A DNA stretch of 64,000 nucleotides, from NCBI GenBank assembly GCA_010015585.1, contig ML975154.1. One strand, given 5' to 3'. The notes under the pieces are model-generated. The model saw only the letters and a list, made by a program, of their open reading frames with translations, searched no databases and had not been told where the DNA came from. The translations under genes and the position numbers were made by a program. Shown here piece after piece: positions 12,952-24,355 of this stretch. Origin of the DNA: Eremomyces bilateralis CBS 781.70. Taxonomy: Eukaryota. Within the stretch, counting starts at the first letter, position 1. Each line of letters opens with the position of its first letter.

Positions 12952-15550
12952 ATGGGAAAGAAGAGAAGGCAGAGCGATATCGCGGAACGCCAACCAACGA
13001 TGCCCTCAGTCATACCGGAGGAGGGCATCGATGCCGCACCAGACTCATCATGGATATCACCCGAAGAAGCGGCATGTGTAACTTCACAACCACGCCACCA
13101 AGTCCCGCAAGACTTCCTGTTCGTCGAATCCATGACCACGGAACCGAGTACCGGCACCGGAAACAGCAGTTCCAAGAAGGGCCGCAGGGACATCCGAAGC
13201 TTCGTCATGCAGAAGGCCAGGCGAAACAAGTCTTGGAGTACCAGCAAGAAGATGATCCCTTCGCCAGCCGCTTCTGGGTTGCTGAAATACGGCACGGGGG
13301 AGGAAAGTGTGGCCTCGCTTGGCCAAACGGACGAATTGACATATCCCCGGCCGTTAACCATCCAGCCACTGGCGGACACCTTTGGCTCATTTAGCCCGCC
13401 GAGGATAGGCGACCAGAGCGGCGGTAATGCTGAGCTTGCTGCCCCAGACGAGGCTGCCATGGGATACGACATCGATCTCGGGTGGGGACTTGGTCTGGTG
13501 GGCAGCAGGTCCCCGACTGCTAGGTTGGCGGGATCCCAGGAGCCCGGAAAATCTCTGACCAGGCAAAACAACCAGCTTCAGTGTGAAGAGTGTAAGAACC
13601 AAGCTCCGCAATGGATGGATCTGTACGCAACCTGTCCAAGGTGTGAGAGCTTTGAATCCCGGATTATACATCGTCTTCCTCCTCAGCAGCGATTCATGTT
13701 CACTGCATTTGATCCGTTCAATACGTTGCCAATCCACGTAGACGAGAAGGTGGTGGGGATGATGGAGCACTGTAAGTTAGCATCTCGTACGTCAGCGACC
13801 CCTATCTCGTTGCTCGAGTAGGCGTCAAGCTCGCCGGTCCACTCAACCACCCCATGACAAGAATACCGTTTGCAAACGCAAAACAAGGGGTTAGGAAAAC
13901 AAAACTAACACTGTGTAGTCCTCTATGTTCTCATTCCACAGTCCATTCCATTGGACATTCATCGCAAGTCCGATGTTTTGAAAACCACATGGCTTGCAAT
14001 GGCACTGACGAGCCGAGCATTCTTACATTCCTTGCTCTGCGCCATATCCCTGCATCTCTACCTTGTAGGGTCGACCGACGTCCGATACGTGGATATCGTC
14101 TACCACAAGGGACGGGCCGTCGCAGAAGTGAACGCGAACCTATCCGATCCCGCCGCGGCCATCAGCGACGCGAACATCGGCGCCGTATGGAATCTCCTGT
14201 GCGTGGAAGAAAGCTTCCTGCTGCCGTTGTGGCAGCGGGATTCCGACTTCTTGAATGATCTGCGACAGCACCACCCGGAACCGGACACCGCGGCGTTGGG
14301 AGTGAACACAGGCACGGCTGCATGCGTGGTGGGCAGCAATAACAACAGTCGAATCATCCATCATAATGGCTTGATGCGCATGCTGGAACTCCGGGGCGGG
14401 ATCACTGGGTTGCAAACCAATCGCTGTCTCCAAGCGTTCATATTCTGGTTAGTATATGTCACCTGCCATTCCATGTGCCCGCGACGACTCGAAGCAAAAA
14501 AATCTTTACGGCTTTCCAATTGCCAATTGATTGGGTTTTATTCGTCGTGTCGATGAAGTATGCATACAAATCGGATTGCTTTTGGCAAAACAGAATGCAC
14601 GGGCTGCTTACACATCTTGACTGATGCAGTTGGCGTTCAATTGGCACCAAACCACCACACCAGATCAGCGAATACTTACTTCGCGATATATTTATAGGCA
14701 TGCTATGACCAACGCCATCGCGTCATTCCACCTCCCACCGCTGTATCCGATCTTGCTATTCGAGCAGCCGACACCGGCCCTGGTCTCACGATACCAGAGG
14801 TACGATCACGACCACGGCCTCGACCATGTCCTTTCGGTCCTTCGATCTAGCCCATGGAACGGTCTCCCCAAAGAACTCGTCCGGATTACACGGAGCCTCT
14901 ACTTCCTCACCATCGACCTCAACGACTGGTTTTCTTCCCATTCCCCTTTCTCGAACATTCTGGACCCGTTGGACCTGCAAACGCGAGCCGTCCATATTGA
15001 GTCATGCCTCCTCCAGCTCCTTGATACTTCCTCCCTCGGGCCACCATCAGCTGGAACCCCTTCCGACCCCGACACAGCTTCTACTTCGATCGGTCTGCTT
15101 CACGATGCCTATGCCATCGCACTTCTCATCTTCACCGTCTGGGTCTCCGAGAACTTATCCAACCAACCTAACAATGTCCTCCAATTCACTGCCATCCCAC
15201 GCCTTCAGCGAGAATTGGTTCTGTCGTCCTCCACCGCTTCTCAGCAGCAAAACGCTCCATTTTGGCCGCCACCGTCGCAGTCAACACAGGAGCGGATCAG
15301 TGAATCTCAAGGGCCACAGCTCAACGCGAGCTCCGGCGACGTACGGCTCTGGATTCTGCTAATCGGAGCGATCTGCTCGTCGAGGTCTTCGGAAGGTACT
15401 TGGTTTCGGAGCGAACTCCAGCACGGATGCCACGATGCAGGGTTGTACGACGTCGAGGAGCTGCTGAGTCGATGTCGACGGTTTTTGTGGGTCGAGTTCA
15501 AGTTGACGGCGGCCGCGCGGGGGATTTGGCGGTGGATAGTCAATGATTAG
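12952..15550 (+). CDS. Fungal-specific transcription-factor-domain protein (Fungal_trans_2/DUF3468-like, no Zn2Cys6); exons 12952-13771, 13919-14447, 14698-15550
   Basis: Family-typical blocks FLFV..RRDIRSFVMQKARR, FDPFNTLP, AFLHSLLCAISLHL..HKGRAVAEVNANL..ISDANIGAV, HHNGLMRMLELRGGI and RLWILLIGAI..WF..FLW. Two GT-AG introns join three ORFs in frame. Confidence 0.8.
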
Positions 15551-16647: not shown

Positions 16648-18452
16648 TTAATAATAAGAATCAATTTAACGTACTATCTAGATCCCTTTCGGGTCTATGA
16701 GCACGGTATTCTATCTGGTCTGCCGCGGGCAAAAGCTTCCCCGTAGCCCTGAGGCTGCGGGTATGTAAAATCCCGGCTCCTCCCTTTAGTAGACATCATC
16801 CGGTGCGGGCCTTTTCGGTGTTGTGTCTAATATCCCCTAGCTGGTTCGGGCCGGGGGAACAGAAGTTTGTCATACTTAGTCCGGAGAGTACACATCATGG
16901 GTTCAGGTTTAGACCTGACACGGCGGGGTCGGCCTCGAGTTCGTCTCGGGGGAGCGGAGGCAGCATCCCAGACTTGCGTCAGGGCTCCCTCAATCTGGAC
17001 AGTGACCTTATGGAAGTTCGTCGATGCTGCTCTTTGAGCGGCCCATTCTTTGACGTAGAGTTCGATTGGGGGAACGTCCGCCTCTCTCTCAAGCGCGGCG
17101 ATTAGTGTCCGTTTGTAAGCCCCTAGGATCTTTCGAAGGCACTTGTTCTGTACCTTGGCTAGGTCTTTCATTTTGCCTTTAGAGATTGGCTCCCCTGCTG
17201 GCGGACTCCCCAGATTAGAGCGCCATATGTCATAATGGGCCGTGTAACCGCTGTGTAGAGCAGCCTCGATTTCCGGACGGATGGTCCCCATATCGACGAA
17301 GTTACCCTTGCCAGGGAATCGAAAGCCTTAAGTCCCCTTTGTGTTGCTCGGAGGATGTGGTCCTTCCATGAGAGGGAAGGGTCGAGCCAGACTCCCAGTA
17401 CCCGGAGGGATGTAACCAATTCAGCTTGGTGTCCCTATACCTGGATCGTAGACCGGAGATCAGCGGAAATATTGCGTTTCTTAGTAAAGTGGATAATCTG
17501 GTACTTATCCGTGGCAAATTTAACCCCGAACCGTGACGCCCATTCTAGGCAGGTATCGTGGGCCGCAGTTAGTCGTTGGCAGTTAGCTACTTCCGTGTCT
17601 CCCCAGGTGACAAGTGTAGTATCATCAACGAACCCGAACCCGAGAACGTTACCCTGAACATCTTTAAATTGTTGCAGTAGGTCAGATATGAATAGGATAA
17701 ATAGCGCGGGTGATAGGGTAGAGCCTTGCGGGATCCCAGTCTCCGTGTCGAACCAGCGGCTCTTAAAGTCCGAGAAGAGGATCCTTGTTCGCCGTCCGGT
17801 TAAGAAAGATGCAATCATCTGGATAATCCATTCGGGGTATCCCATCCGACGAAGGACCCAGAGCAGCCGGGGGTGAGAGACGTTATCAAAAGCTCCAGGA
17901 AGATCAAGCCCAAGTACAGATACTACAGACTTCTTTGCGTGCCACGCCGTCTGTATCGTCCCGGTAAGGAGTTCTAGGGCGGAGAGAGTAGATCTCTCCT
18001 TCCGAGCTCCCATTTGGTTCCAGGGAATCAGGTCTCGTGTTTCCGCTTCGGTGATCAGTCGATCTGCGAGAATTTTCTCAATTAGCTTTGCAACCGTGTT
18101 TTCAAGAGCAATAGGGCGGTAGCTGCTTGGAAGAGAGTAGTCCTTTTTCTTGTCCTTCCTTAGTACCACCGTGGTAGATTCCTTTAGAACTGCTGGCAGC
18201 TCCCCGTTTCGGAAGAGCGCGGTGACCGTCCGGGCAAGGTCTACGGCTAGGATATCAGAGGGGGCATGCAGTACCTCGTTCGGGATCATATCAGGCCCGG
18301 GGGCCTTCTGGTTCGGTAGCCGGCGGATAATCCGGGTGATCTCATCTGGGGTGACCTCTTGCCCGATATCGAATCGTGGAAACTGTTCGTTGGTTATGTC
18401 TTGGAGGTCAGCGGCACCGCTCCGTGGGAAGAACTTTGTGACTGCACCGTAA
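16648..18452 (-). mobile_element. 5'-truncated, degenerate Tad1-like non-LTR retrotransposon (reverse transcriptase to 3' end)
   Basis: KAPGPD, SYRPIALENTVAKLIEK, LDLPGAFDNVSH, GIPQGSTLSPALF, FVDD, LRVLGVWLDPSLSWKDH and KILGAYKRT..PPIEL motifs, broken by stops and frameshifts. The 3' end carries an AT-rich TTCTTATTATTA tail shared with the copy at 48.5 kb. Confidence 0.95.
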
Positions 18453-20059
18453 ATTATTCACTTCTCGATGTACTTGCCGCTAAGAACAATTTCAAATACA
18501 ATGCTCAACCACGACGGGAGATCATTCTTGCTGTCTCTTCAGATTTGACCGACTAACTACTAGTACCGTAGACCGAACGCCTGAAACCCCCACACCAGTT
18601 GCCGTTGTAGCCATGGAAGACTGACTAGAGTCAAGTGTGGCCTCGGTTACGCTCGAGACCTCGACCCAAAGTACATCGCTTATAGCTCTCTTAATGGAAG
18701 ACGTCGAAACTGAGTGGGAGACGATTGCGACCGGTGAGGCTAGTCTGGTGGGACTCTGGGGTAGCTAGGCGATCCACATGCATTTCCCCAAGGTGAGGAT
18801 CGGAAGTGGAGTGGAAGATGAACGATCATCAATGTAGCGCATACTACGGGATTGTACAGTATAAGGGGAAAATATATCAACATGAGAAGCCGAAGCGGAT
18901 GGAGCGACTTCATGATGCTCCGTCTCAACGGTCGACTTGAGTTTGAGGGACATCCGCCTCGACAATGATACAGAATTCCAGCCAGGTTTCCCGTTTCCTG
19001 CATGATGTCATGACTCGTGTTGCTGCTATACAGAAGCCACCATGACTCATGTATCAAAGTTGGAGGCTGGAGGGTAGTCGCTGAATCAAAAGCACGCCTG
19101 ACGCCTGGTGTCATGGAATAATCTAAATATAAATTATATAATAGGTGTGTCTTCAGATAGGAGGATACAATCCATTTTTGTTGGACGGTCTTTGGTCCAC
19201 ACGACACGACTTAGCTTTCGTTTAGCCGCCGTTCCGTGCGGGAAAGGAGGATCCCTTAGAAGGGAAACAACGCTTCAACAACTACTTGAAAAGAGAACGT
19301 GTAATTAGGAGTAATGTGAGGAAGTAGTAGGGTCCAAGGGCGTTTGTACGGAGCCATGCTCGAGATGGAACATGTATTATAGAGCGGTAGAGGAGAACAG
19401 TTCCACCACCACAGATCGAAGGAACCATGGACGATCACAACCGTGCAGCATAGGGGCAGTGGACCACGACCAGCAGGATGGTTAGGTGTCTACACGAACC
19501 TCCTCCCTAGACCCCCGGCCTCTTAACTCGGCTCCCAACCGTCCTTCCACAACTCACACACATCCTATCACCACATCACCAAGCACACAAACCAGTAAGC
19601 AAACCGATTATGAAATTCCTACCGGAACCCGGACACAGAGAAAAAAACTACCATACATTCATCACGCGCCCATCCCACGATTGGCGCGTTAAAGAGCGTG
19701 AATATCAAGTTCGTGAAAATCCCCGGGCTCGTCCATCGGTGCCGGTGAGGCGGCGTATGATGGGACCGGGGATGATGCGAGGACGGGAAGAGAAGGAAGG
19801 AAAGGGAGGAGAGGGGGAGGAAAAAGGAAAGGAAAGAAAAGAAAAGCCGTGAGGTTCATCCATCTGTCTGTCTGTCCGTCTGTCCATGGGCTCGTCATCT
19901 GAGCTCCATCTCTCCCCCCGTACTCGCAATCTGCTCTTCCCGTCCATTCTCCTGAGAAAACGAACCATACCCAGTCAATTTCATCCGAATAAAAATATCA
20001 CGAAATCCATGCACCACTTCCATATCCCACTACCGCATCAACACGTCATGCCGCCATCT

Positions 20060-23000
20060 CTACACCTCCTCATCACTCGCATCTAGAATCTCATACTCCT
20101 CATCCGTCAAGAACCCCGACCCCTCACTCTCCGCCCCCACATCCACTAACTCCATCGTCAAGCTCTCCGCATCGTCGAAGAACTCCTCCTCATCCTCCAC
20201 GCGCGCCGCCATCGGGTTCGCCGTGGTTGCCGATCCAGCCTCGGTTGTGGGCGCACCCGCTTGAGTCGCAGAGCTGCTCGCCTCGTCATCCAGAGCTAGC
20301 TCCAGGGGATCGCGGATCGCCGCATCGTGGCTGGTCGACGCGCTGGCAGACTCGTGCATGCTAGTGCTCGGGCTGCCGTCCTCCTGCAGCACGGGGAAAA
20401 TCATCGCCTCCTTCGCCTTGCCCTTGCCCTTATCTGCATGCGGCGGCGCCTCCTCCAGAGCGGGAATCTCTCCCGGGAGGGCGAAGCCCGACTGTGGGAG
20501 CTGACGTCGACCCTCTCGCGTCGTCAAGAGGTCTGCCTCCGTCGGCCTGCGCAGGGTGGCGGACGGCGACTTGGGTGCCCACGACGGAAGGGGCTCGTTG
20601 ACGTCCTCGATGTGCTTAGCTTCGTGGACCATGGGGGGCGGGGGCGGGTGGATCATCTTCCCGATGTAGCGCTCTGAGATGGATTCATGCTTATTGAACA
20701 TGAAAGGGTGTGAGCGGTGGTTGCGGGGCGAGGAGGCACCGGCGGTGGCTTGGGGTGCGGGAGGGACGCCGTGGGGGAAAGAGCGGGCGAGGTAGGGCAT
20801 CTGAGGAGGAGGCGCGGGGGTTGCAGCGCTGGGTGGGGAAGGACGGTAGGACTGCATAACGTCTTGGATAATGCGCTCCTCAAGCTTGCGTGCTTCTTCA
20901 TCCAAGCGTGCGTCTTTAGCCTTGCGTGCTTCTTCCGCTTTGACTGCCATTTCCGACTTGCGATCCTCGGCATCCTGTCGAGCCTCTTTCGCCTTCTGCG
21001 CCTCTTGCTCCATGCGGGCCATATGCAGACGACGCTTATTCTGCTGGTCCAGCAACATCAACTGCATATTGTAGTCGTGAAGGGCATCCTGGGATGTGGT
21101 CGAGCCAAATTTCGGGGGAGGCTGTGGTGCCGACGGCTCGGTCGCCGGTTTCATGAGATCTTTCTTTTGCTGAAGCACCCGGTTGGCCTGCTCTTGCTGC
21201 TCCTTCAGCGAGGTGAGGCGTGACTGGTAGTCGTCGATCATGCCGGGGGTGTGTTGAGAACCCATCCGCGACACCAGGTGCTGTTGACGCATGGCGTGAG
21301 CACGCTGTTGCAGGCGCAGCTGCTCACGGTGGCGGTCGCTCGGGAACGGCGGAGGCGGGGGGTTGGTGCTGGGTCCGGGAACGAACGACGCAGGCATGTA
21401 TGGGATGGTGGGATATACGTTGGCCATGGTGTTGTGTGGAATCTTCGGCGCCGGAGGAGGAGGGGGTGGTGCTTGTCCATGGACCTCGGGGACGTATCGG
21501 TACGGGTTCGGGACGCCGTCGAGGCGGAGCGGCATGGAAGCGCGCTTGTTCAGATGCGGGGTGGTGCCCAAAAAGTCCGTCATACATTTCTGCTCTGGGG
21601 TCTCCTCGACGACTTTGATGTGGCACCATAGACGGTGACCGAAAGGTGTGCCGTCAGGGGCCTTGAGACGCCAGTAGGAGATGGCGGTACCGACACGAGC
21701 GGGTGCCTTCATGCAGACGCGGAAGGCGAACTTCTGGCCGACCTCGACGGGAGCATGGACGACGTTGCTTTCAGTGGTCTGCTCGTAGTTTTGGAGAGAA
21801 AGGGTAAGTTCGCTTTCCATGGCGAGCATGTTGTCGCCCCCAACGTATCGGACACGGCATCCAGCGGGCCAGCGGATCGGGCCGGGGTTAAGAATGGTCC
21901 AAACCTGGAGGAATCGTCGGCCAGCCACCATCTTGCTGCCATCGGTGACAAGGTCATGAAGGAAGTGGGCGTTCAGATCACCGTACTGTGTGGCGGTTCC
22001 AACCGAGGCCGGGACGCTGGCCGGAGGTGGGGGAGGCACTGTCTTTTGCTCAGCCTTGTCCTGCTCTTGTGGAGCGGACAGAAGGTCCTGGATCTTGATC
22101 TTCTCATTAATAGGCTCAGTCAGAAGGTCTTTGATCTCGATCTTCTCCTTCGGTGGGGAGCGCGGAGCGGCGGATGCCTCCGTCGGCTTCAGATCAGCGA
22201 TGGTCAGCACCGGGGAAACCTCGCTCTGAACGGACGGCAAAGTGGAGGCGCGAGCTTGGGCATCGCCCATGGTGGTGGACGACCCATCCCGGTTCTCACC
22301 CATGGTAGTCACACTGACGTTGTGGACCGGAGTCTTGAGCATGATCAAAGGATGAGTTCGGTTGTGCTTGTTGCCTGGAGAAGCCTCGCAGTTGGAACAG
22401 AAATCCGTGTCATGGCAAATGGCACACTTGTAGCGAGTTCCGTAGATGTACTGTTGACCAGGCTTGTCGTTGTTGCAGAGTGGTCCATCACAGAAGATGC
22501 CGTAGTGAGATACCGGCATAGTCCGAGGTTCTGGAAGGGGATCGTAGATTGGCACAAATCGGTGGCCGGGATGGATCTCCTTGGCGCTCTTGATGCAGGT
22601 GTCGCAGTAGTCCCAATCCGGGCAATTCAAGCACTTGTGGCGAACGCCATGGATGTACTAGGTCTTTGTCAGCGTTTGGTCCAGACTGGTGTTTCACGGT
22701 CACATACCAGGTCACAGCCATCACAGATGGCGGAGTGGGTGGCATTACGGCACAAGATCTTGTCGGAGATCTGCATGTATGTGTTCGAAGTCGCTCCCTC
22801 GAACGCATGTGCGGGATGATGACCGTGTTTGCCACCTCTCAGGCACTGGAAGCAAAGATCAAAATCATCGCAGGTAGTGCAGTGCACGAAGTTCTCCTCG
22901 GGGAAGACTGCAGGTAGGTTAATGACGCTGCCTGTTCGGTCTAAGAAAGGAAAACTTACTTCGAACGCACGAGTTGCAAGTGCGGGAAGGGTGTTTGACA

Positions 23001-24355
23001 GCGGAGGTCCATTTGATCTCTTCCTGGTAAGATCCAGGCATCCTCTGCAGAGACGCCTTCTCGGCCTTGGGTTGGGTAGCTTCAACCTTCTCAGCCTTGG
23101 GTAGGGCGACTTCAGCCTTCTCCACTTTGACTTCACGAGCTTTCTCGACCTTGACCTCGGTCTTCTCCTGGGACTCCACCTTGATTTCCGGAGCATCGGT
23201 GTCCTTGGACTTGGGTGCAATGCGTTCAGTAGTGCTGCTTAGCACTGCTCCATTCTTGACGACACGCTTGATGAGCCAGTGGCCTTCACCGGGACAATGA
23301 ACGCCGGCATCGACGCAGTGGGCGCAGAGGTCGTAGTCACCCTCGTCGCAGATACTGCAATGGTAATGTTCGCCAGACATGGGCTTATCGCAGCTGTTGC
23401 AATATACGGTCCAGTTGCACGCCAGGGCCCATTTGCATTTCTTCTCAGGCTCCGGAAGGTTTGTGGATTCTAGAACTGGATTAGCTCTTATCATTGGAGT
23501 GTAGACCCGAAGACATACCTTGTTCATCCGAGAACGGATCAGGAGTTGGAGGCTCGGGTTCACCGACCACGTCTTTCACGTTGGTGTTATCCGAGGCCTT
23601 CGAGCTGGCATCAATGCCTTGGAGGACGGACTTGAACTGCTCGATCAAAGTGGTCTCGGATGGGTTCGACATCGGGATCGGATCACCACCTTGGGCGGTG
23701 GAAACAGGAGGCGCCTTGGTTGGGGGACCCGATATGGGATCCGCGAGAGTGGAGCCATTGGCAATCGAGGCCGACGCGGTCGGGTTGTTGGCATTATCTT
23801 CAGGCATGGTTGCACGAAGTCGGAGTTTCAGCTTCGCCTTCGCAGCGCGAAGTAAGGACCTATATGCATGGAGGTTGTTGGGGTCCAGGCGGATGTGAGA
23901 CTGCGAGCTGTCGGAGAAGCGCTCGAAGATGACGTCTGAGTCGGCTGGGATGTTGAGAGCGGCTCGTAGCTAAAAGAAGAATGACCAAGATTAGCAACCG
24001 GTTTGGCTTTGGAATGGAAATCGAAGTGGTGATAAGGGTGAGGTGTTCGTTGGTTGTGGTACAAGTGATACATGAGGGGATTGAGGTGCATCGTATGGGC
24101 AAACGCCCAGCTGTACCCAGCTCCCGCACTCCGTTCACGCATCCATAGCAAGGTGCAGAGGGCGGAGAGTGGGAGCGAGGCTAATGCGGAGAGCTTCATC
24201 TAAGTAAACAGGGGACGTACCTTCGCGGGGAGCCTGTCCGGACCCAGATCGGTGAAGGCGAGCTTCAGTCGAACATGTCGTCCGTGATGGAGGACCTTGA
24301 TGGCGATGAGAGTGCTGGATGAGAAAGGCGCTGGGACGGCCGTGCTGCTCGCCAT
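20060..24355 (-). CDS. nbr1: Nbr1-like selective autophagy receptor (PB1-like N-terminus, four ZZ zinc fingers, FW/Ig-like domain, acidic LIR tail); exons 24355-24221, 23969-23519, 23475-22960, 22907-22708, 22657-20060
   Basis: N-terminal FERFSDS..LLRAAKAKLKLRLRAT. Four ZZ motifs: CNSC..YHCSICDEGDYDLC, CNSC..CTTCDDFDLC, CDGC..HKCLNCPDWDYC and CDGPLC..YKCAICHDTDFC. FW domain QVWTILNPG..WP..YVGGD..SYWRLKAPDGTPFGHRLWC. Ends in FLTDEEYEILDASDEE. Four in-frame GT-AG introns. Confidence 0.92.

Follow-up and report, generated by a model that had tools for sequence, protein, structure and literature searches.

The Nbr1 Gene and its Additional Helix

The window considered here, 64,000 nucleotides of contig ML975154.1 from Eremomyces bilateralis CBS 781.70, carries on its minus strand a five-exon gene for an autophagy receptor of the Nbr1 type (Table 1). 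The encoded protein, P0004, has 1297 residues and appears at NCBI as a hypothetical protein of Eremomyces bilateralis. Its architecture comprises four ZZ domains, an FW domain, a conserved fungal region (CFR) and a LIR; Pfam found neither a UBA nor a LisH in any exon of the gene, and the host is not a Som1. Two of the ZZ stretches recognized by Pfam lie in exon 5, one in exon 4, and a weak one in exon 3 which, at 20 bits, falls slightly below the cut-off of 21.4. Residues 1-110, where Pfam gives no match, have a counterpart in 95 of 119 Nbr1 orthologs. The domains of Nbr1 from Sordaria macrospora were reportedly defined by Werner in 2019. In the accessible text on Nbr1 from C. thermophilum (PMC9233695), S. 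macrospora (PMC7162830) and T. marneffei (PMC10315666), a PB1-like start is described, together with the same four ZZ domains, FW, CFR, LIR and absence of UBA as in P0004, and there is no mention of a Som1-derived helix. We infer that the block starting MIFP is the CFR named in PMC10315666.

Contigs from run X3 bridge all four introns (22658-22707, 22908-22959, 23470-23518 and 23970-24220) with GT..AG ends; X3 is taken to be RNA as a guess based on these four joints. One of the contigs runs unbroken from 20000 to 22657 and spans the helix, so that removal of the helix from the mRNA by splicing is rejected.

Table 1. Features of the Nbr1 gene, listed by position in the window
Feature	Position	Strand	Basis
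Nbr1 exon 1, from ATG	24221..24355	minus	X3 contigs
Nbr1 exon 2: second half of putative PB1-like N-terminus, linker	23519..23969	minus	X3 contigs
Nbr1 exon 3: ZZ1, start of ZZ2	22960..23469	minus	X3 contigs, Pfam
Nbr1 exon 4: ZZ2, start of ZZ3	22708..22907	minus	X3 contigs, Pfam
Nbr1 exon 5: rest of ZZ3, ZZ4, FW, insert, CFR, LIR, stop	20060..22657	minus	X3 contigs, Pfam
FW (NBR1, N_BRCA1_IG) domain, four tryptophans	21611..21949	minus	Pfam PF16158, E 6.5e-33; PDB 7VQO, E 1.4e-26
Another pair of predicted helices, upstream, P0004 873-896 and 904-933	21155..21337	minus	AlphaFold2, HMM
Som1-type helix, P0004 955-984	21002..21091 (28-residue core 21002-21085)	minus	Som1-only HMM; helical in AlphaFold2 model
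E/K/R/A-rich helix continuing the motif	20849..21001	minus	AlphaFold2 model and composition
Putative CFR, starting MIFP at residue 1184	20360..20404	minus	pattern in 176/179 orthologs
Putative LIR/AIM core YEIL, residue 1287, after acidic residues	20084..20095	minus	pattern in 161/179 orthologs

What sets P0004 apart from other filamentous-ascomycete Nbr1 proteins is a longer tail after the FW domain (516 residues, against a median of 214 and a range of 164-385 in 118 of 119 orthologs, one having no marker) and, within it, a Som1-derived helix. The helix is read from the minus strand of window:21002-21091 as QDALHDYNMQLMLLDQQNKRRLHMARMEQE, and the plus strand does not give it; it lies 174 residues past FW and 200 residues ahead of the CFR/LIR tail, preceded by a stretch with 18% Pro and 9% Gln. 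An AlphaFold2 model of the Nbr1 region, computed for a single chain without an alignment, joins the motif and the E/K/R/A-rich stretch into one predicted helix of 82 residues (P0004 954-1035; H90-171 of the model, with pLDDT 92-95 in most blocks). The predicted helix at P0004 904-933 has only a faint, non-significant likeness to the motif (-1.0 bit), and a DNA-profile scan of the window found no second copy. No Pfam family covers the helix in P0004, and the ESM Atlas gave no usable match for it; a word-based homolog search with the motif alone returned two candidates, among them P0004 itself as the sole match, the method being too insensitive. Apart from the helix, the Nbr1 gene is ordinary.

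About 1.6 kb past the Nbr1 stop there is a reverse-transcriptase remnant (16827-18457, minus strand; Pfam RVT_1, E 7e-32) with broken frames and no visible connection to the helix. A weak Fungal_trans_2 match was seen at 13909-14556 on the plus strand.

Identity with the Central Helix of Som1/SomA

The preliminary description of this locus had compared the motif with Som1/SomA-type regulators, and a profile search bears this out. Against an HMM built exclusively from 22 distinct Som1 helices the window copy scores 45.3 bits; among 3801 Nbr1 decoys, made by reversal or local shuffling, the highest score was 17.3. It is identical to the LisH-bearing Som1 protein P0273 at 22 of the 28 core positions, and the six changes include Asp in place of a Glu that is otherwise 91% conserved. 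The label "Flo8-like," which was also given to the motif, is borne out for the filamentous-fungal Flo8 ortholog, Som1/SomA.

The exact 14-residue core of the motif was found at no fewer than 116 metagenome loci (80 of them with full flanks) and on one contig from a prokaryote genome, and on no viral contig. With the helix masked, 90 of the 117 loci among the matches listed are Som1-like, as judged from BLAST or from a Ser-Pro signature after the helix, and a 91st (L096) was recognized by its DNA; two pairs of non-Som1 loci appear each to be one gene counted twice. The prokaryotic contig (L117, CAWFUV010000026.1) is assigned to a Chitinophagaceae MAG and contains a stretch resembling Som1; it is probably of fungal origin and was binned with a bacterium. 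Eight full-length Som1-like frames were scanned; all eight contain a LUFS-type pattern, and Pfam finds LisH at the cut-off in two, weakly in one and not in the other five. In Aspergillus fumigatus SomA (AFUA_7G02260) the motif is present in a tryptic peptide given in S2 Table of PMC4631450.

An AlphaFold2 model of Som1 presents the motif as an isolated helix and as its most confident part (pLDDT 84-93, against a mean of 46.9). The Som1 sequence found nothing credible in PDB, and Foldseek with this low-confidence model returned no match. Sequence comparison shows the Nbr1 helix to be copied from the central helix of Som1/SomA, which is almost invariant. The two proteins share this 28-residue helix, this Nbr1 having neither the LUFS region, the NLS nor the flanks of Som1, a Flo8 ortholog and LUFS/LisH regulator (PMC3228794 and PMC4631450); in their accessible text, these two papers treat LisH/LUFS and the NLS and do not discuss the central helix.

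Distribution of the Helix Among Nbr1 Orthologs

On the Som1-only HMM, 20 bits are reached by 9 of the 119 Nbr1 orthologs, and by 33 of 181 in a set enriched through a combined search for FW and the helix. A tree built on the ZZ-FW core from 179 rows, leaving out P0046, was read with a broader HMM: 20 rows have the helix after FW, 15 have it before ZZ1, and 144 have none. The possibility that the helix is a universal part of Nbr1 is rejected by these counts, in agreement with its original description as not known to be a standard Nbr1 part.

The N-terminal carriers are all 15 of the sampled rows from Teloschistaceae lichens, a single clade picked by the enriched search. The carriers with a helix after FW are scattered Dothideomycetes, Eremomyces bilateralis included, and an AU test on 44 rows, from which P0292 and P0299 were omitted as long or gappy, rejects their grouping into a single clade (p 4e-12). 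None of the 109 rows in the clade with the named Pleosporales carries the helix, and since this clade is nested among the carriers Lepidopterella, Lophium and Mytilinidion, the pattern suggests a loss. There were at least two gains in Nbr1, at different sites.

Where it follows FW, the helix lies 26-197 residues past that domain, and its quality ranges from a near-perfect Som1 copy in P0280, filling nearly the whole FW-CFR spacer, down to decayed copies; close relatives of carriers also have decayed copies (P0062 with 14.6 bits, P0115 with 10.1). Spacers of motif-less Nbr1 proteins do not look like decayed copies, giving no profile match and an hhalign probability of 0.9%. In the N-terminal carriers the spacer has a median of 41 residues, against 132 (rows without the helix) and 199, as if the N-terminal helix replaced the missing spacer, in a comparison set that holds no helix-free Lecanoromycete Nbr1. 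To judge from the sequences, the helix is dispensable in most lineages, because 144 of the 179 rows do without it and relatives of carriers have decayed copies. Further Nbr1 pieces were seen in P0158, P0264 and L061:1396-3522, with four, two and one helix copies after FW, respectively.

Spread Through Unrelated Proteins

A 40-residue query against 1.84 billion representative sequences matched 336 clusters at E<=0.001. The best 149 hosts besides P0004 together have 447 copies of at least 20 bits, found in 147 of the 149 at two to eight each, with a median spacing of 59 residues; because the ranking used summed scores, multi-copy proteins are over-represented. Only 31 of the 149 have any Pfam match, and none has LisH. 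The families encountered are ankyrin, AAA/DUF7025, GATA, Zn2Cys6, C2H2, KilA-N with SH3, SCA7, Rsc7/Swp82, RRM, oxidoreductases, M18 peptidase and FW, and some of the 118 hosts without a family may be mispredicted or decaying genes. One protein of helix repeats, P0174, has a C-terminus which by eye is UBA/CUE-like and has no Pfam match.

With the helix masked, 154 proteins (these hosts, four Som1 and P0004) form 103 groups with no link between them. The mobility proposed in the preliminary description thus extends far beyond what had been guessed. The named species among the 29 hosts checked, all Pezizomycotina, are Trichoderma (2), Rhypophila, Halenospora, Chlorociboria, Extremus and Acrodontium. 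A profile made without the Som1 rows still has the Som1 sequence as its consensus, and the flanks of the copies are rich in P/S/G/T/N (0.38, against 0.30 overall). No shared family emerged from a Pfam scan of 55 helix copies, and the helix profile had no match in PDB.

The Probable Donor and the Copying of the Helix

Three hosts (P0139, P0214 and P0222) align to the flanks of Som1 when the helix is masked, and two more (P0232 and P0179) match the part of P0214 that resembles Som1; the acidic motif at the C-terminus of Som1 recurs in 9 of the 149 hosts, with matches of 12.7-25.7 bits and a best decoy of 5.6. Som1 is the likely donor, since hosts align to its flanks and share its acidic motif. 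The motif, of the DVLENFDFDSFL type, travels with the helix in P0176, P0198, P0185, P0271, P0218, P0270, P0255, P0157 and P0135, and the loci L074 and L079 likewise carry both. P0139 and P0214 are Trichoderma GATA proteins, in which a longer Som1 block (the helix and a Ser-Pro-rich flank) stands in tandem, fused to the GATA finger. The NH upstream of the helix is retained in 63 of 440 copies.

At the DNA level the window copy and 79 Som1 copies differ by a mean pS of 0.82 and pN of 0.19, the synonymous sites being saturated. Copies from the same gene usually resemble one another more closely (pS 0.06-0.93), and pS exceeds pN in all 29 within-gene pairs listed, a contrast inflated by the discovery of the copies through protein similarity. 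DNA-profile matches at E<0.1 were all in frame across 420 kb, a sample biased to coding copies. With synonymous sites saturated and every such match in frame, a transposon-like in-frame DNA element is not supported. Pieces of Som1, varying in length, were copied into the low-complexity parts of numerous unrelated proteins in filamentous ascomycetes, frequently with later duplication inside the host gene. We regard the origin from Som1 and the mobility of the helix, as read from these alignments, as very probable.

Possible Roles of the Helix

In 420 copies outside Som1, conservation by heptad position is highest at a (0.82), d (0.88) and g (0.85), with f at 0.66. The a and d positions of the core are occupied by Leu, Tyr, Leu, Leu, Asn, Arg and Ala, and Asn at a heptad a position favors parallel dimers. 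We therefore consider that the helix may form a short coiled coil or small bundle and associate with itself; this function, which rests on pattern and precedent, seems to us evenly poised. The isolated, best-predicted helix of the Som1 model, the P0280 helix that takes up nearly all of its spacer, and the short FW-CFR spacer of the N-terminal carriers speak for it. In Nbr1 it would occupy a variable coiled-coil slot at the head of the 82-residue helix, where clustering of the receptor would raise its avidity for cargo bound by ZZ/FW and for contact of the LIR with Atg8, as with CC1 of metazoan NBR1. A borrowed clustering helix would suit transcription factors and ATPases alike, and it would suit Nbr1 because in the NBR1 of metazoans and certain orthologs from fungi a self-interacting coiled coil offsets a PB1 that does not polymerize, according to the accessible part of PMC9582228. 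The reading as a whole, in which a recurrently captured Som1 segment sits in the coiled-coil slot of Nbr1 and acts as a self-association helix, is offered tentatively, at marginally under an even chance.

The same conservation data lend themselves to another role, in which hosts would capture the helix so as to dock onto one shared third protein, such as a coactivator, PtaB/Ldb1, an import receptor or a chaperone, and the helix in Nbr1 would then recruit that partner or its complexes. The one-sided (moment) pattern of conservation is not significant (p 0.07), and conservation, with some hydrophobic character, extends to the b and c positions, which would suit docking just as well; the Som1 helix is nearly invariant on all faces, search bias included, and in the other hosts conservation spans 0.57-0.91 over the core positions. 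Docking would accord with the nuclear domains of several hosts (GATA, Zn2Cys6, C2H2, KilA-N, SCA7 and Rsc7/Swp82), with the capture of the acidic motif alongside the helix, with the binding of PtaB by SomA, and with repeats whose median spacing suits avidity. A single nuclear partner is, however, difficult to reconcile with hosts such as AAA ATPases, ankyrin proteins, oxidoreductases, peptidases and Nbr1, and we consider docking possible and on the unlikely side. Rather less probable is that the helix is a tolerated passenger, an often-copied Som1 fragment serving as a mere FW-CFR spacer helix whose letters matter little and are decaying. Its patchy and decayed state in Nbr1, the six changes of the window copy with the exchange of the conserved Glu, and the unrelated helices found at this place in orthologs without the motif agree with such a passenger; against it stand the residues kept in spite of saturated synonymous sites, the near-perfect copies in all 15 Teloschistaceae rows and several Dothideomycete lineages, and the lack of out-of-frame copies in the biased 420 kb sample.

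Two further proposals concern proteins with which the helix might pair. The preliminary description had suggested a mobile oligomerization or cargo-binding helix that could connect selective autophagy with a morphogenesis transcription factor; on such a reading the Nbr1 helix would pair with that of Som1 and capture the regulator for selective autophagy or hold it in the cytoplasm, tuning morphogenesis. Identity at 22 of 28 positions would make a heterodimer plausible if a homodimer forms, but the presence of the helix in 336 clusters and 103 unlinked groups deprives it of any Nbr1-Som1 specificity, Som1 keeps the helix while most Nbr1 proteins are without it and several have it decayed, and MoSom1 is nuclear (PMC3228794, as far as its text is accessible). 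Weaker arguments against it are that a published SomA-GFP pull-down names PtaB as the sole partner and that there is no "ZZ type" row among the entries listed in three supplements. A dedicated link between Nbr1 and Som1 is unsupported, and such pairing seems to us highly improbable. The helix could also be a portable co-assembly tag by which carriers join carriers, making helix-bearing Nbr1 an autophagy receptor for the whole class; this we think improbable, if slightly less so. Ape1 is a cargo of Nbr1/Atg19. Two of the hosts, P0164 and P0212, are M18 aminopeptidases of the Ape1-like kind with several helix copies in an N-terminal extension of at least 300 residues, where the propeptide lies, and the best PDB match of P0164 is 5JM6, followed by yeast Ape1, both above Ape4-type enzymes. 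In the yeast Cvt pathway, preApe1 and Atg19 recognize each other through coiled coils (PMC9582228, in the part available).

Relation to Known Systems and Significance

CC1 of metazoan NBR1 and the coiled coil of yeast Atg19 are helical elements for self-association or cargo binding in an NBR1-type receptor, as set out in the accessible text of PMC9582228, a role that the helix described here would share; unlike these, it derives from a transcription regulator and its occurrence is patchy. A works-like analogy, with no homology claimed, is offered by the conserved helix 319-341 of TDP-43, a short element in a low-complexity region that drives multimerization through helix-helix contacts (PMC7084079, PMC10450430 and PMC12658102, each in the part available). 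The letters of the motif (MQLMLLEQQNK, LQDYQMQ) were not found in the open-access text searched, nor were Som1, Nbr1 and autophagy found together. With no match in Pfam, PDB or a paper, the mobile helix module is apparently undescribed.

In Som1/SomA, which regulates adhesion and development, the helix is highly conserved, and it is left undissected in the accessible Som1 literature. A 28-residue piece of this one conserved regulator is found in at least about 100 unrelated groups of proteins, and it has entered a single kind of autophagy receptor in two places; its spread illustrates short-module shuffling in fungi with unusual clarity, the donor being traceable. If the co-assembly proposal were true, part of a transcription factor would have re-invented the preApe1/Atg19 recognition of the yeast Cvt pathway.
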